DNA of 54,521 bases from Methanobacteriota archaeon (GCA_002687935.1 NZBN01000002.1:102592-157112); one strand, 5' to 3'. Shown: positions 6,635 to 27,282, counted from the stretch's first letter. The notes: generated by a model not told the origin, from the letters alone. Translations and numbers: made by a program.

Positions 6635-6859
6635 CTAGTTCTTATAATAAATAAGCCAAACAACGGCCCCAAGAAGGACGGTTACAGAGGCAAGAACGAC
6701 TGCATACAAGCCACCTGCAGGACCTAAGGATTCTGAAATTGAGAGGCCGCTAGTTGAATTTCCAGTATATACGAACATAAATAGAAGAAGTGAAAGTGCT
6801 GTTGCACTCAGGAAAAGTTTTACTAACCTTTCTTTTGAACTGGGTGTAGATTCTGACAT
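6635..6859 (-). CDS. small two-TM membrane protein
   Basis: ATG 6859 (MSESTPSSKERL...), two hydrophobic segments; the longer track start overlaps cobO. Confidence 0.6.
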   Translation of the reverse strand: MSESTPSSKERLVKLFLSATALSLLLFMFVYTGNSTSGLSISESLGPAGGLYAVVLASVTVLLGAVVWLIYYKN

Positions 6860-6899
6860 AGATAAATTGTGGATTACCAAATATAAATAGCTTGGCAAA

Positions 6900-7502
6900 T
6901 CAGTATTCCACACCCCAGCGACCCATAACACCGCGGTCAAATGGATGTTTTTCTCTTTGAAGAACTGTAACATAATCTGCCTCAGCTCGGATTTCTTCAG
7001 GAGCACCCCTACCTGTAAGAACTAGCTCAGTGGACTTGCTTTTGTTCTTTAACATTTCCAAAACATCCTCAGTTTTGATATATTTGAAACTGAGAGCAAC
7101 ATTTATTTCATCAAGAATAACAAGTCCAGAGTCTCCAGAGGATGTGACTTCTTTTGCGAGCTCAAGTGCGTCCTTGGAACTACTCACCATTTCAGTGCTA
7201 GTCATAAAACAATCTCTGCAGCTTCCACATGAATAATCCTTGTCCTTTTTGTACATCTCAGAGTAAGTACATTTTTTTCCAAATTGTTTTATTGTAAAAT
7301 TAGGCATAAAAGTCTCCGACGCCATGTACTCCCCAACATAAGTTCCCCCTTTCAGAAACTGTATCATGTAAACTTTTATGCCGTGTCCGATTGCACGTAA
7401 TGCCAATCCGAGAGCCGCAGTTGTTTTTCCCTTGCCATCTCCAGTATACACATGTACTAAACCAAGCCCAGTTTTTGCATCGCCTGTTTCCCCAAACCTC
7501 AT
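6900..7502 (-). CDS. cobO: cob(I)alamin adenosyltransferase, CobA/CobO/BtuR type
   Basis: VHVYTGDGKGKTTAALG, IQFLKG, LDEIN, LVLTGRGAP, ADYVT, KHPF..G. Confidence 0.95.
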   Translation of the reverse strand: MRFGETGDAKTGLGLVHVYTGDGKGKTTAALGLALRAIGHGIKVYMIQFLKGGTYVGEYMASETFMPNFTIKQFGKKCTYSEMYKKDKDYSCGSCRDCFMTSTEMVSSSKDALELAKEVTSSGDSGLVILDEINVALSFKYIKTEDVLEMLKNKSKSTELVLTGRGAPEEIRAEADYVTVLQREKHPFDRGVMGRWGVEY

Positions 7503-9550
7503 AGACTGTCGCCGGCAGATAAAACTTGATTCTGGTGACTTCCCTCCCGATATACGGTGATTCCCTTACATCCACTCTTCCATGCAAATACCAGAGAATC
7601 ATTTATTTCCTTCAGTGTTGCTGTGTTTTTCAAATTTGCCGTCTTTGAAACTGAATTGTCTACATATTTTTGAAGGGCTGCCTGAATTTTGATATGCCAT
7701 TCAGGGGGTATGTCAAGAGAACTAACAAAAACATCGTGAACCTTTTTTGGAACTTCGGTGAAATTTTGGATTGAGCCAGTCTTTGCAATCTCGGCCATCA
7801 AGGCAGGAGAATAGAAACCGCCATCCATAGCAATCTTCTCGAAGATTGGGTTCGTATATACAAAACGACTGTCCCCAAGAACAGTCATAACATATGAAAT
7901 CGCAAAATTTGGTTCACAGCCGGAAGACACACCTGCAAGAATACTGATAGTTCCCGTAGGTGCAATTGCAATGCAAGTTGCATTCCTCATACGCCTCTTA
8001 TTTTTATGATGAATAGAGCCTTCCCAGGCCGGAAAGGTTCCACGATCCTTTGCCAGTATTTCTGATGTATTATACGCAGTGTCTTTGATATATTTCATAA
8101 GTTTCTCAGCCATTGCAAGACCTTTTTTCGAATCGTATTTTATGTCAAGCATATAGAGCATGTCAGCAAACCCGAAGATGCCAAGACCTATCTTTCGTGT
8201 ACTCTTTGTCGCGAATTCTATGTCGTGATTTGCATAGCTGGCAACATCTATGGAATTGTCAAGGAATCTAACTGCTGTCCTGACTGTCTGCCGGAGAAGA
8301 CTCCAGTCAATATCACTCCAGTCAGACTTCACCATTGCAACCAAATTTATTGAACCCAGATTACAACTTTCATTGGGAAGAAGGGGAACCTCCCCACAGG
8401 GGCTTGTTGCTTCAATCTCCCCGAGGTGTTTGCAAGGATGTTTCTTATTTATCTGATCTATAAAAACAATGCCGGGATCCCCTGTGAGCCAGGCACTGTG
8501 AACTATTAAATCAAAAAGGTCCCTTGCCCGGACCTCTCTGTGCTTCTTTTTTGTGTTAGGGTCAATAAGGTTGAATTTTCCATCCTTCATAACAGCCTTC
8601 ATAAAATTGTCAGTTATAGCAACAGATATGTTAAAATTGCTGAGCCTTCCAAAGCGGTTCTTTGAGCTTATGAAATCGAAAATATCTGGATGGTCAATGC
8701 GGAGAATTCCCATATTGGCTCCTTTTCTTCTACCACCTTGTTTTATGGCATTTGCAGAACTGTCAAAAACATCCATAAAGGCAAGGGGACCAGCTGCAGT
8801 ATCTGCACCGCCTGCAACCATACCCCGTTTTCCACGAAGCCTTGTAAATGAGAAGCCAGTACCCCCACCATTCTTGTTTACAAGAGCAGCAGTCTGAAGA
8901 GTTCCGAATATACCGTTAATCGAATCCTCTATTGGAAGAACAAGGCAGGAAGATAATTGATTCATCTGAGTTCCTGCGTTTGTTATAAGTGTACTACTTG
9001 GGAGAAAGTAGAGATTTTTCATCATCTCATAAAATTCCGTCTCAGTTTTCTTTATAGATTTTGAGCCATATTCTTTTTCAGCCCCTGCAACGGCTTTTGA
9101 AACACGCTTGAGAAGCTGTTGAGGAGTCTCTGTAATTTTTCCTTTATAATCTTTGAGAAGACATCTTCCTTTAAGGACTTCGAGAGCGTAAGTTGAAAAG
9201 TTAAGATTGCTTTCCTTGAAACTCTCACCAAGAACAAATTCATGTTCAGTTCTTTCTTTCTCTCTCTCATGTCTGAAAAGAATATATGCCTTTGCCGTTC
9301 TGTAATGACCGCCCTCAACGAGAGCTTTCTCAACAACATCCTGTATAGCCTCAACACTTAGGACTTTTCCAGAATACTTAGTTCGAAGAGATTTTACAAC
9401 TTCCTGACCTATTGAATAGGCCATCTCCCGGTCTTTGCCGGCAACAGACTGTGCGGCATTCCAGATAGCGTCCTTAATCTTCCCTGGCTTAAAAGGGACA
9501 AGCTCCCCAGTTCTCTTCTTTACTCTGGATAACTTAGAAGTTTTTGCCAT
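7499..9550 (-). CDS. nrdJ: class II (AdoCbl-dependent) ribonucleotide reductase with ATP-cone, copy A
   Basis: ATP-cone VKKRTGELVPF; LSSC, GGGTG, ATSPCGE, ESCNLGS, APTGTIS, KGITVYR; ATG 9550 preferred over TTG 9565. Confidence 0.92.
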   Translation of the reverse strand: MAKTSKLSRVKKRTGELVPFKPGKIKDAIWNAAQSVAGKDREMAYSIGQEVVKSLRTKYSGKVLSVEAIQDVVEKALVEGGHYRTAKAYILFRHEREKERTEHEFVLGESFKESNLNFSTYALEVLKGRCLLKDYKGKITETPQQLLKRVSKAVAGAEKEYGSKSIKKTETEFYEMMKNLYFLPSSTLITNAGTQMNQLSSCLVLPIEDSINGIFGTLQTAALVNKNGGGTGFSFTRLRGKRGMVAGGADTAAGPLAFMDVFDSSANAIKQGGRRKGANMGILRIDHPDIFDFISSKNRFGRLSNFNISVAITDNFMKAVMKDGKFNLIDPNTKKKHREVRARDLFDLIVHSAWLTGDPGIVFIDQINKKHPCKHLGEIEATSPCGEVPLLPNESCNLGSINLVAMVKSDWSDIDWSLLRQTVRTAVRFLDNSIDVASYANHDIEFATKSTRKIGLGIFGFADMLYMLDIKYDSKKGLAMAEKLMKYIKDTAYNTSEILAKDRGTFPAWEGSIHHKNKRRMRNATCIAIAPTGTISILAGVSSGCEPNFAISYVMTVLGDSRFVYTNPIFEKIAMDGGFYSPALMAEIAKTGSIQNFTEVPKKVHDVFVSSLDIPPEWHIKIQAALQKYVDNSVSKTANLKNTATLKEINDSLVFAWKSGCKGITVYREGSHQNQVLSAGDSL

Positions 9551-9564
9551 ATTTTGTATAGGCA

Positions 9565-9580
9565 ATATTGATATTTAAAC
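9565..9580 (-). promoter_or_regulatory. putative TATA box for a leaderless nrdJ-A/cobO transcript
   Basis: TTTAAATA on the minus strand ~22-29 nt upstream of ATG 9550. Confidence 0.4.
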
Positions 9581-9807
9581 TAAGAGTCGCACTTGCTCAT
9601 TCCACACTCAGGATTTGTACAGGAAGAACAGCCCTGTTCAACTTTTAGAGTATTTTTTCCACAATTTGGACATTTTGCAAGGGAAGCTTCATCAGTAGAC
9701 TCTTCTCCATCAGCAGAATCTGTATCAGAAGTCACTTCTTCTATTTCAGAGAGACTTTCCACTTCCTGTAGAGAAATTGTAGCTTGTCCGAATTTAATCA
9801 CCATCAC
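9580..9807 (-). CDS. stand-alone NrdJ C-terminal Cys-rich/Zn-ribbon tail protein
   Basis: CPNCG..L..EQGCSSC..PECG.SKC matches NrdJ C-termini; GTGATG overlap with the upstream stop; GGGGGTG SD. Confidence 0.8.
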   Translation of the reverse strand: MMVIKFGQATISLQEVESLSEIEEVTSDTDSADGEESTDEASLAKCPNCGKNTLKVEQGCSSCTNPECGMSKCDS

Positions 9808-12314
9808 TTAACACCCCCTAAGTCAATCTTTCCAGATTTTACTGCATGATAAACTGTAGTCAGCCGACCATCTGCAAGAGATATTATACTGTCTCCTTTG
9901 AGAGTCTGCTTCTTGCCATCTTCAGAAGCTATTTTGAAGATCTTGTTCTTGAAATCCTGGAATTCTGAAGATTTGCTTCCAATACTGAGAATGGGGTAAC
10001 GACTCCCTTCCCTGTATATTGTTATACCTTTGAGACCCTTTCTCCATGCCTCAAGATACATGTTTGAAATCACCTCAGGCTCTATATCCTCAGGAAGATT
10101 ACAAGTGGATGAAATGCTGTGGTCTATGTATTTCTGGCAAATGGACTGAACCTCTATTCTCTTCTGCGGAACAATGTTATGAGCTGTTCTAAAGAAATGT
10201 TCAGGAAGTAGCCCCTTCAGAGAATCATCCGATTCCAGATTTTCAACTTTGTCAGAAAGTCCTTTAATATCCAAATAAGCCTGAACAGTTCCATGAAATA
10301 CTTTGAAAATTTTATTTCCGAAGGATTCTGAACGTCTTGTATAGTAGAGAGCAAAGATTGGCTCAACTCCGCCACTTACACCCATATAGTTTTTATCTCC
10401 GTCTTTAAAACCAAGAACTATATTTGAAATTGAACCAGTGGGGGCTATTGAAAGAAGTGCAATATTTCTAAGACCTTTTTCCTTAATGATTTGTTTTGTT
10501 TCTTCATCCAAGCTTTCCTGGAAAAAGGGATTTTTAGAATATTTCTCATAGTCATAAATAGCTGAGCTTCCTTTTTCCTCTGCGAGATGTGCAGAAGTTC
10601 TGTAAATTGTATTTGCGATGCGGCACATAACTTTCTCTATAATTTCAAGAGCTTCATCAGAATCATATCCAAGGCCAAGCTGATTCAAAAGGTCTGCAAT
10701 CCCCATAACACCGATACCGAGTCTGCGGGTTTCTCCGGCGGCAATTCTCTGACTCTCGAGAGCATTGAGGCTCTCATTCCATGTAACAACATTGTCAAGG
10801 AATCTTGTCAGATTTTTTGCAGAATGGTCGAGTCTCTCAAAATTAATTGAGGCATTATCAGTATATCCCTTGTCCACCATTCTTGAGAGATTTATAGAAC
10901 CTAAGTTGCAGGCACCTCCATCTTCAAGAGGAACTTCGCCACAAGGATTCGTTGAGCTTATGGGACGTTCGACATAGTTTGAAGGAGAATACTTAGTCAT
11001 AGAAGACCAGAAAATAAGTCCTGGTTCAGCAGTCTGATAATTTCCCTCAATGAAAAGATCCCAGACTTCTCTTGCCTTAACCAAATTTCTTACTTCCCCT
11101 GTATCATCTGATGCAAAATATAGTAAGAAATCACCAGAGTATTTGACAGCCAAGTCATAATCTTTGTTTGTTTCTAGCGAGTAATCACCATAAATATCTC
11201 TCTTTTTGATATCTTCAAGATCTGAAACATTTACCTTAAGGTCGTAATCACTGTGCAGTTTTTCATTGAGTGAGTCTATAGAGTCGAAATCCCCGAGTAG
11301 CTCGTATTCAGAAACATCTTTTGAAGGCACCCCATGGGAATAATTAAGAGCAAGAGTCTGAGGAGCTTTCATAACCGTTCCCTTCGGCTTTTTATAAAGA
11401 AGTAATTTATCAGAATCATGACTTGTTTGCTCGTCAACTGCCTGCATAAATTCATCTGAAACTTTTATACTTATATTTGCGAAACGGATTTGAGTATTGT
11501 CACGGACTTGTTTCTCAATTATTTCCAGCTGAGCATCAGTAAACTTGCCTGACCAGCTACACTGCTCAACAATTTGCTTAGTAACCCAGTTAGAAACCTT
11601 CTTTACTTTTAGGAAGTCCATAATGTCCGGATGCTTGACATCCAGAGTAAGCATAAGAGCACCTCTTCTTCCAGACTGACCAATTAGACCAGTAGTTAGT
11701 GAATAAATATCCATAAAAGAGACTGCCCCTGTAGATGTGTCAGCGGCGTTGTGGACCACAGCTCCCTTTGGACGAAGGGTGGATACATCAATCCCGATTC
11801 CCCCTCCATAAGATTCAGTTCTCGCGCACTGATATGCGGCATCATATATTGACTCTATACTGTCTTTTTTAATGAGAGCAACAAAGCAATTTGCAAGTGT
11901 TTTCAGGCGATAAAGATCTCCGGCTCCTGCGAGAACTCTCCCACCAGGAACATAATAACCATTATATAAATCATTGTAAAATTCAGACGCCCATTTTTCT
12001 CGCCCCTCATCAGAATCTTCAAGGGAAGCAATGAAGGCAGAAAGTCTTGCATAAACATCCTCTGGCCTCTTATCAACAAGATTTATGTCCAAATCCTTTA
12101 GATAATATTTTTTCTCGAATATGTTTTTTGCAAGTTCATTTCCGCAAAGATAGTCTGTAGAGTGGAGGGGAAGTGTCCCGTCTGCCTGTTTTTCCTTGAC
12201 ATATGAAAGAAGTTTTTTATAAGTCTGAACCGGTTCTTCACCAACTTTTTTAGCAAGATTGCTATCAAAATCAAACATATTAGCATAGCCATTAAGTGTT
12301 TCAGATTTTTGCAT
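9804..12314 (-). CDS. nrdJ: class II ribonucleotide reductase, copy B, no ATP-cone, with insertions
   Basis: PGGRVL, TLANC, GGGIG, GRRGALM, STNPCGE, ACNLGS, APTGSIS, KGITIYR. Confidence 0.93.
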   Translation of the reverse strand: MQKSETLNGYANMFDFDSNLAKKVGEEPVQTYKKLLSYVKEKQADGTLPLHSTDYLCGNELAKNIFEKKYYLKDLDINLVDKRPEDVYARLSAFIASLEDSDEGREKWASEFYNDLYNGYYVPGGRVLAGAGDLYRLKTLANCFVALIKKDSIESIYDAAYQCARTESYGGGIGIDVSTLRPKGAVVHNAADTSTGAVSFMDIYSLTTGLIGQSGRRGALMLTLDVKHPDIMDFLKVKKVSNWVTKQIVEQCSWSGKFTDAQLEIIEKQVRDNTQIRFANISIKVSDEFMQAVDEQTSHDSDKLLLYKKPKGTVMKAPQTLALNYSHGVPSKDVSEYELLGDFDSIDSLNEKLHSDYDLKVNVSDLEDIKKRDIYGDYSLETNKDYDLAVKYSGDFLLYFASDDTGEVRNLVKAREVWDLFIEGNYQTAEPGLIFWSSMTKYSPSNYVERPISSTNPCGEVPLEDGGACNLGSINLSRMVDKGYTDNASINFERLDHSAKNLTRFLDNVVTWNESLNALESQRIAAGETRRLGIGVMGIADLLNQLGLGYDSDEALEIIEKVMCRIANTIYRTSAHLAEEKGSSAIYDYEKYSKNPFFQESLDEETKQIIKEKGLRNIALLSIAPTGSISNIVLGFKDGDKNYMGVSGGVEPIFALYYTRRSESFGNKIFKVFHGTVQAYLDIKGLSDKVENLESDDSLKGLLPEHFFRTAHNIVPQKRIEVQSICQKYIDHSISSTCNLPEDIEPEVISNMYLEAWRKGLKGITIYREGSRYPILSIGSKSSEFQDFKNKIFKIASEDGKKQTLKGDSIISLADGRLTTVYHAVKSGKIDLGGVK

Positions 12315-14134
12315 TATTTTTTCCTCCCCTCAAATTTGATATATTTTGAACCTGATTTCTGCGCCTTATCCAAAAGATTCTGAAGACCACCAGATTCTGG
12401 AACTGGAAGTGACTGTAAAGCTCCCCCCTCGAGAAATGGAAGTAAGCTAGACTCAGATAAAAGCTTATTGGATGCATCGAGCTCCGAGGAAGCCCAAAAG
12501 GAAGGAGTGTAAGCACCAATTTTTGATGCGGCATTATAATTTATTGAATCCACTTTAAAAAATCTCTCCAGAATTTGTGTAGCCGGGCACCCTGCTATTT
12601 GAAAATCCAGACCGCTTTGCGCTCTGTATTCTTCGGCATTTTCCTTCATCCTTCCAAGAACTTTGCGACCGAAGTCTTGGGCAGTTTTTTCAGATAACTG
12701 AGAACCAGTTACAAGTTCTACAAATTCATTCATCCCAGTTATTCCAAGTGAAAGTGGTTGGATATCCGGAATCAAATAAGACTCGTCGTCAAGAATTTTT
12801 TGCTGAAGAAACGGTAGAAGATTTCCTTCCATACTTCGATGAACGACTTCTCTTTTTAGGAAAAGTATGTCCTTTGCCGCCGCCATTCTCTGATCCAGAA
12901 TAGTAAAAATCCTAGCCTCATCACTGCCAGAATCATATGCAATTTTAGGAAGATTGAGAGTGACAGTTTGAAGAACTCCTCCACGTGAAACTTCACTCTT
13001 AGGATAATTGAAAACATACGATGAGTTTTGATATGTAAGACCTTCCTGATTTCCAAGAACGAAATGAGGAGTCTGGAATTTTTCTGCAAGTTCAAGTGCC
13101 TTGGAAAGTAAGTCCTCAGAAGGAGAATCCCCAAGGAAGAGATTAAGTTGAGGATAGTCAAAGGGCTTTCCTGCATAATCTCCCTGAATATAAATATCCA
13201 GGACAGCCATAGCAATGGATTTTGACTCTTCAGAATAGTCAGAGTAAACACCTTTAGTGGAACCGCCTGAAGAAACTGCATCAGAAGAGGCAAGATTTTT
13301 AGGAATCTCAAAATGCAAATCAATTGTAGAAGTCATAGTCTGACCCCCACGAGTTACATACATGTGGCTCATTTCAAAAACGAACATCTGAACCAGTTGT
13401 TTTATTTTTGTATAATCGAGACCTTTGACATATGGCGCAAGAAGAACATTGAAGGCTATGAGACCCTGACTCCCTGAGCAATTTATCTGTGCAGCAGATA
13501 GAACTCTAGAAGCCTGGAGGAAGGCCACATCAGAAGCCTTTGCAGGACCAGCGACAGGAGCGAAGAGTCCAAGTCCGTCAACTTTGAGACCATTTCTTAG
13601 GAAGGGTCTGAGATCATGTGAAAGGCAGTAAGGTCTTGTTGCAAAATAATTCAGCCGATGAATATGTAAATTCCCACTCATGTGGTCATCAACGCGAGTT
13701 GGCGGAAGTATATTCACATAGGTATATTCTCTTGAAACAAGGTCCGCCATCATTTTATGAACTGTTTCAGGATTATGTGGAATTTTTTCAGTCTCAGATG
13801 GACCTGTAAAAATTAGCTCACGGACATCATAGACAGGCATTCCAAGACGAGTGTACCTCATTCTGGCGGATTCGTAACCGTGTTCAAGAAGCTTCACGTT
13901 GACTATCTCCCTTATCAGAGGAGCAGTTAGATACTTTAAGTGCATTCTAGAGACATCGTGCTCAACTTCCTGAGAGATTGACTTGGCGATTGACTCATCT
14001 ATACTTGTCTCCTCCACCAGAGACCTTACAATCTTCTCCTTACTAAAGGGAACGAGAATATTTTGAGATGTCCTGACACGTACGGATTCAGGTTTTTCTA
14101 TTGAAGAGGAAACTTGCGCAGTCATTTCTACCAC
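12314..14134 (-). CDS. NrdD (class III RNR)-derived protein, ATP-cone + barrel, catalytically degenerate (start possibly ATG 14125)
   Basis: LTAPLIREIVNVKLLEHG, YTRLGMPVYDV, NPET, HIH, RGGQ, GD..GKPF, VTLNLP; no finger-loop Cys, no C-terminal CxxC pairs, no RxxGY. Confidence 0.85.
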   Translation of the reverse strand: MVEMTAQVSSSIEKPESVRVRTSQNILVPFSKEKIVRSLVEETSIDESIAKSISQEVEHDVSRMHLKYLTAPLIREIVNVKLLEHGYESARMRYTRLGMPVYDVRELIFTGPSETEKIPHNPETVHKMMADLVSREYTYVNILPPTRVDDHMSGNLHIHRLNYFATRPYCLSHDLRPFLRNGLKVDGLGLFAPVAGPAKASDVAFLQASRVLSAAQINCSGSQGLIAFNVLLAPYVKGLDYTKIKQLVQMFVFEMSHMYVTRGGQTMTSTIDLHFEIPKNLASSDAVSSGGSTKGVYSDYSEESKSIAMAVLDIYIQGDYAGKPFDYPQLNLFLGDSPSEDLLSKALELAEKFQTPHFVLGNQEGLTYQNSSYVFNYPKSEVSRGGVLQTVTLNLPKIAYDSGSDEARIFTILDQRMAAAKDILFLKREVVHRSMEGNLLPFLQQKILDDESYLIPDIQPLSLGITGMNEFVELVTGSQLSEKTAQDFGRKVLGRMKENAEEYRAQSGLDFQIAGCPATQILERFFKVDSINYNAASKIGAYTPSFWASSELDASNKLLSESSLLPFLEGGALQSLPVPESGGLQNLLDKAQKSGSKYIKFEGRKK

Positions 14135-14220
14135 CTTAAAACTTTCTTATGTGTATTTTGTGATAATTCAAAAAGCTTTAAATACATTTTTAAACCATAC
14201 ACACATTAAACCGATTAAAG
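14135..14220. promoter_or_regulatory. divergent promoter region between the RNR operon and the TrmB gene
   Basis: AT-rich; TTTAAATA 14177-14184 and TTTTTAAA 14187-14194; TGTATTT/AAATACA inverted repeat. Confidence 0.5.
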
Positions 14221-15114
14221 GTGGGAAATATGCTAGACCCTGAATTCAGAACACTACTCAAAGAAGAATATGGTTTCAGAGAAAACCACTTAATTTTGCT
14301 AAGCCATTTTATGTCTAATAAAAAAAAGAAACTTTCAGCAGAAAGTCTTTGGACTGAAACTGAAGTTCCTAAAGGAAGGATTTACGAATTTTTAAACGAC
14401 CTTGTTGACTGGGGATTCCTTGAAGTTGAATACAAAAAACCAAAAACCTACTCAATACTAAACCTGAAGGAAGCTCTACAAAACGCCATAAGTAGGAAAG
14501 AACGAAAATTAACTGAGACAGAAAAAAAGACTCTTGAAATGGCAAACAAAATAGAAAAAAGCTGGCGTACAGAAGTCGGAGAAAAAACAGGGAGCATACA
14601 AATTATAAGCAGTCCTGAGGAATTTTACATAAAAGCCCGTGAAATGTTAATGGACAGTACAGAGGCGAAGGTTTCAGAAAGAACACCTCTCCTCTTCCTT
14701 TCTACAGAAAGGAACTCAACATGGAGGAGGAGAACTTATGAGAGCATGATAGATATGACAGAAGCAAAGCGCCTAGATTTGAAATATATATTCTCTCTTG
14801 AAAATATAATAAAAATTGCATCTGAAAATGAAAACGCAGATGAAGTAATAAACAGTTTAAAGGATTCTCTTGAAAACGGCAACCTAACATGCAGATATGT
14901 AGCAGGAACCGGAATTGAGAGCATGCTTATTGTAAAAGACAGAGCACTTCTTGGAATTGTTTCTCCTAAAAGCGGATCTGTGGAAAATGGATTATACACT
15001 GAATCGAAGGAAATGGTGGATTCACTCCACAAGATGTATGACCTTGTATTTGATGAAGCTGAAACCCTTGGAATTAAAACTCTGCAGATATTAGGAAAGG
15101 CCCTGGAAGAATAA
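14221..15114 (+). CDS. TrmB-family transcriptional regulator
   Basis: wHTH VPKGRIYEFLNDLVDWGFLE...PKTY, coiled-coil linker, C-terminal effector domain (MLIVKD). Confidence 0.88.
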   Translation: MGNMLDPEFRTLLKEEYGFRENHLILLSHFMSNKKKKLSAESLWTETEVPKGRIYEFLNDLVDWGFLEVEYKKPKTYSILNLKEALQNAISRKERKLTETEKKTLEMANKIEKSWRTEVGEKTGSIQIISSPEEFYIKAREMLMDSTEAKVSERTPLLFLSTERNSTWRRRTYESMIDMTEAKRLDLKYIFSLENIIKIASENENADEVINSLKDSLENGNLTCRYVAGTGIESMLIVKDRALLGIVSPKSGSVENGLYTESKEMVDSLHKMYDLVFDEAETLGIKTLQILGKALEE

Positions 15115-15126
15115 ATTTATCTGGAT

Positions 15127-17973
15127 TTAATTATTTTCAGGGAAGGATTCTGAAAGCTCAATCTTTCTAAGCTTGCCCAGTTTGTATGTTTTAATTAGAC
15201 CCCTTCTTTCAAGGGTGTCGACCCAGCGAGACAGACTTGTAGTTGGAATGCCAGTTGCGTGGTAGATTTTTGCCTGAGTTGTTTTACCATCATTTTGTAA
15301 AATAAATTCTAGAATCTCCTTTGCCCGTGGATTGAGCATGTTCATCACTGAACTTGCTTCCTTTGACACAGTAATTTCGGACATGTTTGGCTTTGAAGGT
15401 TTCACCGAATCCTGAGATATCTTTCTGGAGAATTTTAGAGGACGTGGAATCTTTAACTCAGGAAGACCAGTTCTCATAACATAGGTAGATATTAAGAGAA
15501 ACATAAGAATTCCGCCAATCGACATAGTTGCGACACCTTTGTGGGCTCCTGACCAGACAACAAGACCGGAAACCCAGGAATTTGAATTGTCCTGCTCAGC
15601 ATCAACAGGGATATTTATCTTGTGAGTTTCTGCATCAGAAGAGTAGGAAAGTGAAGTATTATCTGAAATTAAATTTTCAGAAGAATTGACTTGCTCTTCT
15701 ACAGATACAGGTGCTTGTGCAGGAGCTGAATTAAAGCTTCCGCCACCTCCACCGCCTCCGCCGCCTCCAGCAGAGGAGCTTTGAGCTGGCTCATCTTTTT
15801 GGTATCTAAGGATGAAGATGAGGCTCTCATTTGAATCCATGTTTCTTGTGAAAGTGACTACACCTGAAGAGTGGGTGACACCATTAAGAGAACTATTATT
15901 ACCTGACTCAGAAACATTAAGTGAATCGTTGTGAGCATCACTAAGAGTAAATGAGATAACAACAGAATAGGACAGCAAAGAATCGGAATTTACAACGCTG
16001 AGATTCCTTGCAACAGAGAGAGTATCGCTTGGAGCTGAAACTGAAGTGGTGTATTCACTACCGAGTTCGAGGGAAACTAGATTGGACTTCATACAGGACT
16101 CTATATTCGATATATTAGACCAGTTCCCGGAATCAAGTGTAGTCTGATTTTGTGAAAGTGTACAATTCCAACCTGTTCTTCCAGTAAGAGGAATGGCAAT
16201 ATTGGAAAAGTTTGTAGAGCCAGTATTAAGGATACTAATATCTCTTGAAATTGATGTAGAGCCACCGGCGACGACGGAAGCTGAAGCCTGCCAAGCAGAA
16301 TAGGACTCATCGAGAGCATCTCCGGACCAGTTTGCACTGATTGTATAAGAAGTACCTGAATTAAAGGAAGACAAATTTCCAGAACAGAGAGTGCAGTTTA
16401 AAGAATCAGAAAAAGACCAGGAAATATTCGAATAATTTACTGAGCCACTATTGTTCAGAAGATAAGACAGAGAGGCATGCTGGACTGAGATGCTAGAAGT
16501 CCTGTTTAATTCCTGACTTGAGTTTAGAATTGATTTTGAGAGATGATTTGTTAGAAGATATGTTGTATTTGGAAGAGAGCTATTTGAAGGAAGTAGAATA
16601 CTTGAGTTTACTGAACAGACCTTTCTATTATTCAGTGTTGAAACAGTTCCGCTTATTCCACTGATACTGCAGGAGCTTGTTCCGCCGTCGACATAGAACT
16701 TAGTTATATTAAGTGAAAGTGAGGGAGACGAAGTAAAGGAGATTGCTTCTTCTAAGTTTGCAGTACTTCCAAAGGAGTTTGACAAGGAAATAATGTAAAC
16801 TGAGGAAATTGCACCACTGTGATTGTAAGTCAGATTGACATCCAGACGGTTCAGCTCCAGTATGGCTTCTGCTTCAGAATAAAATCGGAGAGGAACTTGG
16901 CAAGACGAATTCAAATAAGTACAGCTTCCAATATAGGAATTAATTGCAGATGAAAAATCTCCTGTTGAATTATTATCAGCGGCGTAAAAACCTGAGACAG
17001 ACCAGACCTGGGTGCTTCCAGCACGCAGATTTGGATTTTTTGGGGTCTTTGGAATTAAAACTGTGCTGGCGCCACCTTTTGTAAACTGGAAATAGTCCAT
17101 ATCCGCAAGAGCTGAGCCTCCGGAAACACCGAATTTGAACTCAGAAAAGGTTTGCCCTCCGCAGTTTGAATTCATACAAGTCATATGACTTGTCTGGAGA
17201 ACCTGCTTCCCATCAACATATATTGTATTCACTTTGCCGTTTTCTAGATAGGTATAACGATAAGTGTGCCACTCAGTAGCATCAAGACTGTAATTGTCCG
17301 TATGTGTGTATACGTCCCCTGGAGCATTAGCAGAATCTTTGAATTTTACATGATCTGTGTATATTTCCATTGCATTTCCTTTGAAATTATTATAGGAACC
17401 GCCACCTGCAAATTCTGAACCTCTGTGGAAACTAAAAATCATTTGTCCTGAAGAACTGTTAGAAATGCGGGCTCTGAACTCAACCGTAAAATTATCAAAT
17501 TGATCTGGTCTGTACTGAGAATTCAGATTCCAATAGCCACTTGAACCATTCATATTCAATATACCGGAACTTATTGAAGAACGTGTATTTCCACTTTCAG
17601 ACCAATTATAGAAAGTCTCATTAGGAAGCTGGCTGGCAGAGTAAGTCCAGTCCCAGTTCTCCCCTGCAAGAGACTGATGACCAATTAACCAGAGCTGTGC
17701 CCCTGAAACTGAGGTTCCGTTTGGAATACTGATATTAGAATATGTATAAATTGACTGGGAAAATGTATGATTTACGGGAAGATAGGAAGAACTTAGTGAA
17801 TTTTCATAAAAGGAAAACACAGGATTCTCCGTGTCAAGTGTAAAGCTTGTTTGGACAAGAGCAAATGAAGATGTTGAGAAAATGCACAAAAACACGAAAG
17901 ACATAGAAAATAATAGTCCATATCTAGCGAGTGCAGAACTTTTGTATATGTTTTTGTCCAAAAAACTGGACAT
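15127..17973 (-). CDS. large Ser/Asn-rich surface protein with TM helix and C-terminal winged HTH
   Basis: SD GGGGGTGG before ATG 17973; signal peptide; LamG/ConA-like segment (FTVEFRAR...WHTYR...IYVDGK); poly-Gly; TM; TQAKIYHATGIPTTSLSRWVDTLERRGLI. Confidence 0.75.
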   Translation of the reverse strand: MSSFLDKNIYKSSALARYGLLFSMSFVFLCIFSTSSFALVQTSFTLDTENPVFSFYENSLSSSYLPVNHTFSQSIYTYSNISIPNGTSVSGAQLWLIGHQSLAGENWDWTYSASQLPNETFYNWSESGNTRSSISSGILNMNGSSGYWNLNSQYRPDQFDNFTVEFRARISNSSSGQMIFSFHRGSEFAGGGSYNNFKGNAMEIYTDHVKFKDSANAPGDVYTHTDNYSLDATEWHTYRYTYLENGKVNTIYVDGKQVLQTSHMTCMNSNCGGQTFSEFKFGVSGGSALADMDYFQFTKGGASTVLIPKTPKNPNLRAGSTQVWSVSGFYAADNNSTGDFSSAINSYIGSCTYLNSSCQVPLRFYSEAEAILELNRLDVNLTYNHSGAISSVYIISLSNSFGSTANLEEAISFTSSPSLSLNITKFYVDGGTSSCSISGISGTVSTLNNRKVCSVNSSILLPSNSSLPNTTYLLTNHLSKSILNSSQELNRTSSISVQHASLSYLLNNSGSVNYSNISWSFSDSLNCTLCSGNLSSFNSGTSYTISANWSGDALDESYSAWQASASVVAGGSTSISRDISILNTGSTNFSNIAIPLTGRTGWNCTLSQNQTTLDSGNWSNISNIESCMKSNLVSLELGSEYTTSVSAPSDTLSVARNLSVVNSDSLLSYSVVISFTLSDAHNDSLNVSESGNNSSLNGVTHSSGVVTFTRNMDSNESLIFILRYQKDEPAQSSSAGGGGGGGGGGSFNSAPAQAPVSVEEQVNSSENLISDNTSLSYSSDAETHKINIPVDAEQDNSNSWVSGLVVWSGAHKGVATMSIGGILMFLLISTYVMRTGLPELKIPRPLKFSRKISQDSVKPSKPNMSEITVSKEASSVMNMLNPRAKEILEFILQNDGKTTQAKIYHATGIPTTSLSRWVDTLERRGLIKTYKLGKLRKIELSESFPENN

Positions 17974-18180
17974 TTTACCACCCCCAAGTGCTCCGTGAAG
18001 GAGGCTGTATATAAATATTCGGATATTGTTGTATATTGTTCCAAATTGGCTCAAATTACTGAACATTTCTCCACCTCTGTACTAAAATGTGTGTTTGACC
18101 TATTTAAAAAAAATCCCGCGAAGCCAAGGGAAGAACGCTTTAACAATATATAAAAAGGACAATTATCATCAAAGCCAGTT

Positions 18181-27003: not shown

Positions 27004-27282
27004 ATGACCAAAGTAACAATTTATACAACTCCAACTTGCGCTTACTGCGCAACGGCGAAGGACTTTTTTGACAAAAATAATATTGAATATGAAGCAATTG
27101 ATATAACAACAAATGTTGAAGGAATGAAGTGGATGCAGGAACGCGGTTTCCAGGGAGTCCCAGTTATTGTGTTAGGAGAAGGTGACAAAGAAGAAATACT
27201 CCAAGGATTTAATGAGGAAGTGCAGGCACAGATAGAAGAAGAACTGGGAATGCGGGGTGACTCAGGAAAAGGATATGGCTGA
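27004..27282 (+). CDS. glutaredoxin / NrdH-like redoxin
   Basis: IYTTPTCAYC, GVPVI, GF. Confidence 0.9.
   Translation: MTKVTIYTTPTCAYCATAKDFFDKNNIEYEAIDITTNVEGMKWMQERGFQGVPVIVLGEGDKEEILQGFNEEVQAQIEEELGMRGDSGKGYG

Follow-up and report, generated by a model that had tools for sequence, protein, structure and literature searches.

A ribonucleotide reductase operon of marine Undinarchaeota with one intact-looking NrdJ and two crippled-looking ATP-cone paralogues

Gene content and conservation of the locus

The stretch of DNA analysed here (the window, 54,521 nucleotides in full length; GCA_002687935.1, NZBN01000002.1:102592-157112, recorded as Methanobacteriota archaeon) carries, between its positions 6900 and 15114, a ribonucleotide reductase (RNR) locus of six open reading frames (ORFs), five of which are co-oriented on the minus strand and one of which diverges from them on the plus strand. 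The ORFs were assigned to families with Pfam and NCBIfam profile scans, and the minus-strand operon reads NrdD-like protein, NrdJ-B, a 74-aa cysteine (Cys) tail, NrdJ-A and CobO, with a TrmB-like gene as the divergent neighbor; the overlapping junctions are TAATG (NrdD-like/NrdJ-B), GTGATG (NrdJ-B/tail) and ATGA (NrdJ-A/CobO). A preliminary description of the window had reported the five co-oriented genes, the three overlaps and the divergent TrmB gene, and all of them were recovered. The host is a marine metagenome-assembled genome (MAG) of the Undinarchaeota (DPANN), with 666,542 bp in 11 contigs and 86.6% completeness, and its nearest public records are an Undinarchaeales MAG and UBA55, with 86% and 84% identity in the NrdD-like protein, respectively. 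A neighborhood search in related archaeal genomes, which had been proposed as a check, showed that the whole arrangement recurs in two congeners (L006 and L007) with identical six-gene order, down to the 74-aa tail as a gene of its own and the ATSPCGE motif of NrdJ-A.

The ratios of nonsynonymous to synonymous substitution (dN/dS; pairwise Nei-Gojobori, three congeneric genomes, with dS of about 1–1.9 against the window, so that the values are rough) were low for all six genes, ranging between 0.08 and 0.15 for NrdD-like, 0.05 and 0.11 for NrdJ-B, 0.08 and 0.17 for the tail, 0.06 and 0.09 for NrdJ-A, 0.03 and 0.04 for CobO, and 0.04 and 0.09 for the TrmB-like gene. The stretch is also found in contigs from many marine, seawater and hydrothermal-vent metagenome runs, with no RNA data set listed among the matches, and four of these runs (X9, X10, X11 and X13) were compared with it: the NrdJ-B/tail junction is bridged by contigs of the independent runs X9 and X10, the NrdD-like/NrdJ-B junction by contigs of X9, X11 and X13, the serine (Ser) codon of NrdJ-A discussed below is covered in all four, and no insertions or deletions relative to the window are listed in their contigs. 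The conservation in congeners, the low dN/dS and the indel-free contigs of independent runs indicate that the six genes are real, intact and constrained, and that the arrangement is no assembly artefact.

The NrdD-like pseudo-reductase (12314–14134, minus strand) encompasses an ATP-cone (about residues 20–94) and a class III RNR barrel (PF13597), and its start, judged from the orthologues and the cluster representative P0007, is probably the ATG at 14125, giving 603 aa. The PF13597 (NRDD) match reaches 270.9 bits over profile positions 4–503 of 562, and the NrdD equivalog TIGR02487 gives 244.7 bits, under its cut-off of 326.35. In the alignment to T4 NrdD, the loop bearing C290 is missing, V stands in place of N311, and the protein stops before the Zn site and G580, with the equivalent of C79 retained; the finger loop is TYQNSSY, in contrast to CYQCC or AQCC in live relatives. 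The sequence contains no CxxC or RxxGY motif, and the next gene begins on its stop codon. In the host genome the best score for NrdG was only 16.7 bits (TIGR02495), TIGR02491 had no match and no Gly_radical domain was found anywhere; searches at E ≤ 1e-5 detected no NrdG in the three congeneric genomes, and NrdG is over cut-off in 9 of 17 Undinarchaeota genomes. Since the radical Gly domain, the thiyl Cys and the Zn ribbon are lacking and no activase was found in the genome, the NrdD-like protein is regarded as catalytically dead, and it is predicted to be incapable of glycyl-radical chemistry. It had been described beforehand as having an ATP-cone and no catalytic machinery; the cone and the dead class III enzyme are upheld, and the total loss of machinery is a slight overstatement in view of the retained C79 equivalent. 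An AlphaFold2 (AF2) model built from 38 relatives (pLDDT 85.8, pTM 0.82) found class III RNRs as its best Foldseek matches (9d3x, 8p2c, 1h7a and 4coj; E 1e-28 to 1e-21), and the class III fold is kept in this model. Just two ATP-cones are over cut-off in the genome, those of NrdD-like and NrdJ-A, both in the operon, and no NrdR-like stand-alone ATP-cone protein (Zn ribbon plus cone, about 150 aa) was found in it.

NrdJ-B (9804–12314, minus strand) is a class II RNR, predicted to depend on adenosylcobalamin (AdoCbl), which scores 491.6 bits on TIGR02504 against a cut-off of 399.95 and has the C/N/C/E/C motif set intact (LANCFVA, STNPCGE and GACNLGS); the earlier observation of a canonical active site without ATP-cone or tail agrees with the STNPCGE motif and with the profile scan, which detects no cone. 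The protein is 60–64% identical over 97–99% of its length to two groups of NrdJ, one of about 830 aa, whose named members are Calditrichota or Bacteroidota, and one of about 1000 aa with an ATP-cone, named Woesearchaeota, and it is predicted to be the working enzyme. The trans tail (9580–9807, minus strand) is a 75-aa ORF, probably 74 aa from an ATG that overlaps the TGA stop of NrdJ-B, and its existence as a separate gene, likewise reported before, is borne out by the X9 and X10 contigs. It contains six Cys in the pattern C-x2-C-x10-C-x2-C-x4-C-x4-C, and has no Pfam match; its only family match is to the last 46 positions of the NrdJ model PRK08665/NF006417 (713–758). A fused terminal CxxC...CxxC tail was observed in 20 of the 120 listed NrdJ-B homologues, with an end motif nearly identical to the tail of the window, which shares 59% identity with the C-terminal end of P0252, a fused homologue (E 1e-12). 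BLAST with the tail gave 18 matches among the tails of the NrdJ-B set and none against the NrdJ-A set, though 45 proteins there have Cys tails. The C-terminus of NrdJ-B aligns to the point where its fused relatives continue, about 64 residues past the barrel; this and the similarity to fused NrdJ-B-type tails indicate, on alignment evidence, that the tail is NrdJ-B's own Zn-finger end, split off in the linker and translationally coupled (TGATG). A pairing of the tail's N-terminus, VIKFGQAT, with RYVFSKTA of the fused relatives was also considered, and stays a guess, as MAFFT placed it elsewhere. Loderer et al. (PMC5704485) describe the Cys-rich domain as present in 70% of NrdJs, with six terminal Cys and a Zn ion that carry out electron transfer, which can also run between subunits. 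The domain is separately encoded in NrdJa+b enzymes (PMC5704485, PMC4520616), and genomes with two NrdJd, one of them without the Cys-rich domain, occur (PMC5704485).

NrdJ-A (7499–9565, minus strand; probable start at ATG 9550, 683 aa) is a class II RNR paralogue composed of an ATP-cone and an NrdJ body, with 655.5 bits on TIGR02504, over cut-off, and a match that ends at position 577 of the 759 of PRK08665, at the close of the catalytic core; a C-terminal redox tail is lacking. Its active-site motif is ATSPCGE, and in the alignment to Thermotoga maritima NrdJ (1xjk) the residues C134, C322, E324 and C333 are retained, with Ser in place of N320, so that the cone, the altered asparagine (Asn) and the missing tail of the preliminary description are all present. 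Asn occupies the N320 position in 118 of the 118 other homologues, and Ser is found only in the genus of the window. Of 172 columns with conservation of 95% or more, 15–16 are altered in the orthologues of this genus; the other homologues have a median of 1 altered column and a maximum of 8, counts that are biased low because the columns were defined on those homologues. The nearest in-phylum relative (G003) keeps the Asn and a short terminal CxxC, and NrdJs elsewhere in the phylum keep the Asn and a Cys tail. Among the NrdJ-A homologues, 75 of 120 are shorter than 740 aa and without the Cys-tail pattern; going by these lengths and patterns, a tail-less NrdJ is ordinary, and ATP-cone forms of ~685 aa occur frequently in DPANN. 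In about 60 such tail-less NrdJs with a cone (~685 aa; within P0129–P0246), TTNQCGE takes the place of NPCGE; they are named Woesearchaeota or Nanoarchaeota where named, and at least five have EGI[VA]LGS replacing the second redox Cys. In class I mutagenesis, variants of N437 of Escherichia coli R1, the equivalent of N320, are reportedly inactive. In RNRs of classes I and II, Asn and Glu make contact with the substrate (PMC4493059). NrdJ-A is thus probably impaired.

CobO, a predicted CobO/CobA-type ATP:corrinoid adenosyltransferase (6900–7502, minus strand), has an ATG overlapping the NrdJ-A stop (ATGA); it is far over cut-off on PF02572 (184.3 bits), just under cut-off on the equivalog TIGR00708 (165.6 against 167.75) and under cut-off on NF004637 (171.7 against 185). 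It is taken as the last gene of the cluster because Gar1 and TFB genes come downstream. The TrmB-like putative winged-helix regulator (14221–15114, plus strand; 297 aa from GTG, with an ATG at 14230) scores 33.2 bits on PF01978 against a cut-off of 25.6, over residues 14–81, and has orthologues at the same position in L006 and L007; no sugar-binding or C-terminal TrmB domain was found in the Pfam scan, and the NCBIfam TrmB models remain far under their cut-offs. The divergent intergenic region between this gene and the operon (14135–14220, 86 bp) is AT-rich, with a central TTTAAATA, short inverted repeats and GGTGG-type ribosome-binding sites at both ends, and shows 96% mean column identity over 112 aligned columns in the three genomes, although dS in the flanking genes reaches about 1.1–1.9 between the window and the two congeners; it is a probable promoter/operator with a putative regulatory role. 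Around the locus, a 123-aa ORF without Pfam match (6635–7006, minus strand) overlaps CobO at its 3′ end and is possibly not a genuine gene, and L006 has small ORFs of 74 and 82 aa after CobO in its place. Beside the TrmB-like gene lies a 979-aa protein (15127–18066, minus strand) in which only a C-terminal winged helix (DUF7343/MarR-like) is recognisable, and which is kept in L006 with 89% identity and dN/dS of 0.15. A glutaredoxin-family gene (27013–27177, plus strand; PF00462, 56.1 bits) lies ~12 kb from the operon, and three thioredoxin-family matches, one of them under cut-off, occur elsewhere in the genome; the products are possible reductants for the tail.

Glycyl-radical-dead NrdDs beyond the locus

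The relatives of the NrdD-like protein were labelled dead or live with regular expressions (RxxGY in the last 130–140 residues for the Gly motif; xCC or MGC[RK] for the Cys-Cys loop). In an alignment of 127 rows, comprising P0001, its closest homologues of at least 560 aa and eight Undinarchaeota proteins, 53 are without both motifs and 64 have both; similarly, among the best 150 representatives of 50%-identity clusters, 64 are without both and 63 with both. In the same 150 representatives, the intein-sized proteins (>850 aa; within P0366–P0508) are mostly of the live type, and 49 of the 76 proteins of 560–850 aa are without both motifs. A quick IQ-TREE analysis of 43 rows placed a branch with 99% SH-aLRT support between 19 of the 20 live proteins and all 23 dead proteins plus P0011, which keeps the Gly motif. 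The NrdD-like protein thus belongs to a large maintained clade of dead NrdDs. Differential conservation was also observed along the proteins: the ATP-cone and linker are the best conserved part of 48 dead NrdDs, with a mean top-residue frequency of 0.76 against 0.44–0.70 elsewhere, whereas in 59 live homologues the barrel (0.67–0.81) is better conserved than the cone (0.71). As measured by these frequencies, constraint in the dead NrdDs is shifted from the active site to the ATP-cone.

Some members of the clade, on Altiarchaeota-like contigs and here called Altiarchaeota-type (L050, L051, L052 and L076), sit between a TctA transporter gene and archaeal Nre genes, and in the related contigs L047, L049 and L078 a live NrdD occupies the TctA-Nre position that is held elsewhere by the dead form, so that the dead form looks like an in-place replacement of the live enzyme. 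In some of the Altiarchaeota-type proteins the finger loop is deleted and the Zn ribbon kept, and many have two ATP-cones.

A second group of dead NrdDs was detected when metagenome contigs were scanned with the dead-NrdD alignment and the best 80 of 590 confirmed loci were chosen by two peptide patterns, a selection that is no census. In 51 of the 80 loci, a dead NrdD lies directly upstream of, and co-oriented with, an NrdD with the Cys-Cys loop; the downstream protein has the Gly motif in 41 of them and none in the other 10, where most such ORFs reach the contig end. A glutaredoxin-family gene stands between the dead and the live NrdD in 29 loci, with pyrB/pyrI beyond. These upstream proteins form a deep clade separate from that of the window, and all seven that were scanned consist of an N-terminal winged helix (DUF7347/ArsR-like), an ATP-cone and the NrdD body, a winged helix-turn-helix (wHTH) fusion in which SRVSAKY stands at the radical Gly site, unless the end is truncated, and the position of the loop Cys is variable. 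The proteins of this fused clade (metagenome loci L054–L122) are about 700–830 aa long, with a Zn ribbon after the NrdD body; examples are L082:7154-9463(+), L064:7294-9696(+) and L096:7113-9392(+). Clusters with this architecture are present in the ESM Atlas, the phylum most often represented in them being Bathyarchaeota, Nitrososphaerota, Promethearchaeota or Nanobdellota, and DUF7347 has no mention in the literature searched. The clade of wHTH, ATP-cone and dead NrdD is a candidate archaeal counterpart of NrdR, and a regulatory reading of dead NrdDs gains support from it, because this second dead clade carries a wHTH and lies upstream of a live nrdD.

The RNR genes vary across the Undinarchaeota. 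Live-type NrdD with NrdG, and no NrdJ or CobO, was observed in G004, G005, G006, G008, G012 and G013; G002 and G014 have NrdG without NrdJ or CobO, and an NrdD that keeps the Cys-Cys loop and leaves the Gly-motif pattern unmatched. NrdJ is directly followed by CobO in G003 and G007, and the pair is adjacent in G010 too, where a live NrdD fragment and NrdG lie on contig C18, and a dead NrdD, an NrdJ with a fused Cys-rich tail and CobO on another contig. The dead NrdD of G010, which belongs to another Undinarchaeota genus (L036, G010:C12; 9970-11196, minus strand) abuts a wHTH gene (9388-9969, minus strand), whose 193-aa product has a CggR_N/PH0730-like DNA-binding domain and DUF4443. In G011, two in-frame TAA stops are reported in the dead-NrdD copy, and the NrdJ (L029, G011:C26, 1-2644, minus strand) has an intein-like insertion whose last residues, VVHN, immediately precede the catalytic-loop CGE. 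Among the genomes of the phylum compared, two NrdJs occur only in the genus of the window.

Readings of the operon

With the anatomy, conservation, purifying selection and clade membership observed, the reading that we favour, and to which we give about an even chance, is that of one working NrdJ-B/tail/CobO system accompanied by two ATP-cone paralogues that have been retained without catalytic activity for sensing or regulation. The locus, the only RNR locus found in this marine Undinarchaeota genus, would act as one operon with overlapping stop and start codons, in which, as we infer for the identity of the active enzyme, NrdJ-B would be the AdoCbl-dependent class II reductase, the tail its translationally coupled 74-aa electron shuttle, and CobO the enzyme that adenosylates salvaged corrinoid to give the cofactor for NrdJ-B. 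NrdD-like and NrdJ-A are read as non-catalytic sensors because both keep their ATP-cones under strong purifying selection; the cones would bind ATP or dATP, and the two proteins would tune the supply of deoxyribonucleoside triphosphates (dNTPs). The putative regulatory mechanism could take two routes, namely that the crippled paralogues act at the protein level on the cone-less NrdJ-B, or that transcription is controlled together with the TrmB-like regulator through the conserved 86-bp region.

Several observations weigh against this reading. Interaction or regulation among the operon products is so far read from sequence, the NrdD-like protein of the window has no DNA-binding domain, and the adjacency of the TrmB-like gene was seen in one genus only. 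The TrmB-like protein was considered as an unfused counterpart of the fused wHTH and rejected, as BLASTP of P0006 against a wHTH-fused dead NrdD gave a best E of 0.37, leaving only the general fold class in common; a complex prediction for NrdD-like with TrmB-like scored 0.00 and carries no weight either way. No NrdJ match was found in any of the 80 metagenome loci with dead NrdDs, and no wHTH gene among the 10 scanned neighbor proteins of the Altiarchaeota-type dead NrdDs; with neither found beside the Altiarchaeota-type genes, the clade may function independently of NrdJ and of any TrmB-like protein. The dead and live labels come from regular expressions, and some rows may be gene fragments; the genome is 86.6% complete, so that NrdG or another RNR may have been missed; and dS between the window and its congeners is near saturation, which makes the dN/dS values rough. 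As regards NrdJ-A, the inactivity ascribed to Asn-to-Ser is extrapolated from the class I E. coli N437 variants, the protein keeps three Cys and the Glu under strong constraint and may still be an enzyme, and the roughly 60 TTNQCGE homologues show that tail-less NrdJs are normal.

A different account, which we consider possible but rather unlikely, is that both NrdJs are independently functional class II RNRs, NrdJ-A being active despite its Ser, perhaps through another reduction route, and NrdD-like having a function unrelated to the enzymes of the operon. The residues kept in NrdJ-A (Cys, Cys, Cys and Glu), its 655.5 bits on TIGR02504 and its dN/dS of 0.06–0.09 are consistent with such an account, as are the abundance of tail-less NrdJ homologues, the thioredoxin and glutaredoxin genes of the genome, the dead NrdDs elsewhere that are not linked to NrdJ, and the genomes with two NrdJd, one with a Cys-rich domain, described in PMC5704485. 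However, the Asn is invariant in the 118 other homologues, NrdJ-A stands out from all other homologues by its deviations at conserved columns (16 of 172, where the others have at most 8), the short CxxC end of the G003 relative is gone as well, and these changes occur only in the genus that also holds NrdJ-B.

The preliminary description had argued from complementary deficits to a modular, possibly heteromeric cross-class assembly. Spelled out as a holoenzyme, the dead NrdD and/or NrdJ-A would bind NrdJ-B stoichiometrically and lend it their cones, with the tail serving both NrdJs; this we regard as unlikely. Class III and class II RNR dimers differ in build, which counts against such an assembly. 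The tight operon with overlapping junctions, kept in three genomes, and the cone that is absent from NrdJ-B and present in both crippled paralogues speak for it, and the literature supplies precedents in the cones on NrdB, the subunit other than the catalytic one in class I RNRs (PMC5794259), and in the possible electron transfer by Cys-rich domains between subunits (PMC5704485). However, members of the dead-NrdD clade also lie away from any NrdJ (no match in the 80 loci), and the tail resembles NrdJ-B-type tails only. No computation supported the complementary-deficit argument, and most of the deficits have simpler explanations: the tail is NrdJ-B's own and separately encoded Cys domains are already known, tail-less ATP-cone NrdJs of ~685 aa are frequent in DPANN, adjacency of NrdJ and CobO is general in the phylum (G003, G007 and G010), and dead NrdDs of the same clade occur away from NrdJ, as in those 80 loci. 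That NrdD-like, NrdJ-A and the split tail are decaying relics, pseudogenes or frameshift errors of assembly is very improbable, for although catalytic elements are lost and the G011 copy has two in-frame TAA stops, it is contradicted by the purifying selection (ORFs intact in three genomes, dN/dS 0.05–0.17) and by the identical junctions in independent-run contigs with no indels listed, and it sits badly with the confident AF2 fold of NrdD-like and with a large, diverse dead clade whose cone is highly conserved. What survives of the earlier idea is that two crippled ATP-cone paralogues are probably kept for a non-catalytic, regulatory role, as in the reading of NrdJ-B with its tail and CobO that is favoured above.

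A broader proposal is put forward tentatively, namely that radical-dead class III RNRs are widespread, undescribed archaeal ATP/dATP sensors that replace NrdR; the wHTH-fused clade would control the adjacent live nrdD, and the Undinarchaeota clade, to which the window belongs and whose sensor is without a DNA-binding domain, would act via a separately encoded winged-helix protein (TrmB-like in the window, CggR_N/DUF4443 in G010) or on NrdJ-B itself. If this is true, dNTP synthesis by a horizontally acquired class II enzyme would be coupled to the dATP/ATP ratio, and NrdJ-A would represent a second pseudo-enzyme in the making. As nucleotide sensors, the dead NrdDs would be a testable candidate for the missing archaeal RNR regulator and a clear case of an enzyme turned regulator of its own pathway. 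The control of ribonucleotide reduction in archaea is largely open, NrdR being rare there (PMC9110341), and the locus led to two large clades of glycyl-radical-dead NrdDs with well-conserved ATP-cones. At least one RNR phylogeny (PMC6370689) dropped sequences without catalytic residues as likely non-functional, a practice that would hide dead NrdDs. In the present case, a minimal genome keeps two crippled RNR paralogues under selection beside one intact-looking reductase.

Comparison with known systems

Of the features of the locus, the split tail, the linkage to CobO and the NrdJ without a tail have known counterparts or are ordinary. As far as our literature searches reach, no description exists of the dead NrdD clade, the wHTH-fused dead clade or the genus-specific Asn-to-Ser NrdJ. 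Dead RNR subunits kept for other roles are exemplified by yeast Rnr4, the beta′ partner of Rnr2, and by the betaherpesvirus R1 homologues M45/UL45, in which, as in NrdD-like, catalytic or cofactor residues are lost and selection is maintained. Those proteins are of class I and belong to eukaryotes and viruses, whereas NrdD-like is an archaeal class III alpha paralogue that conserves its ATP-cone best. No article on dead NrdD or HTH-NrdD proteins came up in the literature searches; sequences of this kind may figure in the supplementary tables of PMC5704485 and in RNRdb.

The separate tail resembles the NrdJa+b enzyme of Pseudomonas aeruginosa and the NrdJd Cys-rich domain in having a Cys-rich module in a separate gene beside a catalytic NrdJ (PMC4520616, PMC5704485). 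The NrdJd domain likewise has six terminal Cys, arranged CxxC...CxxC...C...C, and two NrdJs with one module per genome are also described (PMC5704485). The break differs in that it lies inside the module in the window, where the last 74 aa are separate, whereas NrdJb is the whole 150–220-aa domain (PMC5704485). The NrdJ-B lineage differs as well, being of Calditrichota/Woesearchaeota type, and the likeness to P. aeruginosa is drawn from the gene split.

For the cones, in class I RNRs whose catalytic subunit is without one, the radical-generating subunit NrdB with an ATP-cone provides overall-activity control by a cone placed off the catalytic polypeptide, as proposed here (PMC5794259). The cone-bearer there is an obligatory active subunit, whereas the cone-bearers here are crippled paralogues whose binding to NrdJ-B is hypothetical. 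NrdR is the bacterial repressor of RNR operons, built of a Zn ribbon and an ATP-cone, and is described as rare in archaea (PMC9110341). Unlike NrdR, the NrdD-like protein is devoid of a DNA-binding domain and includes an entire dead reductase body, and its regulatory role is putative. In NrdR the cone serves as a nucleotide sensor over RNR genes, and the fused dead-NrdD clade exhibits an analogous order of a DNA-binding domain followed by the cone.

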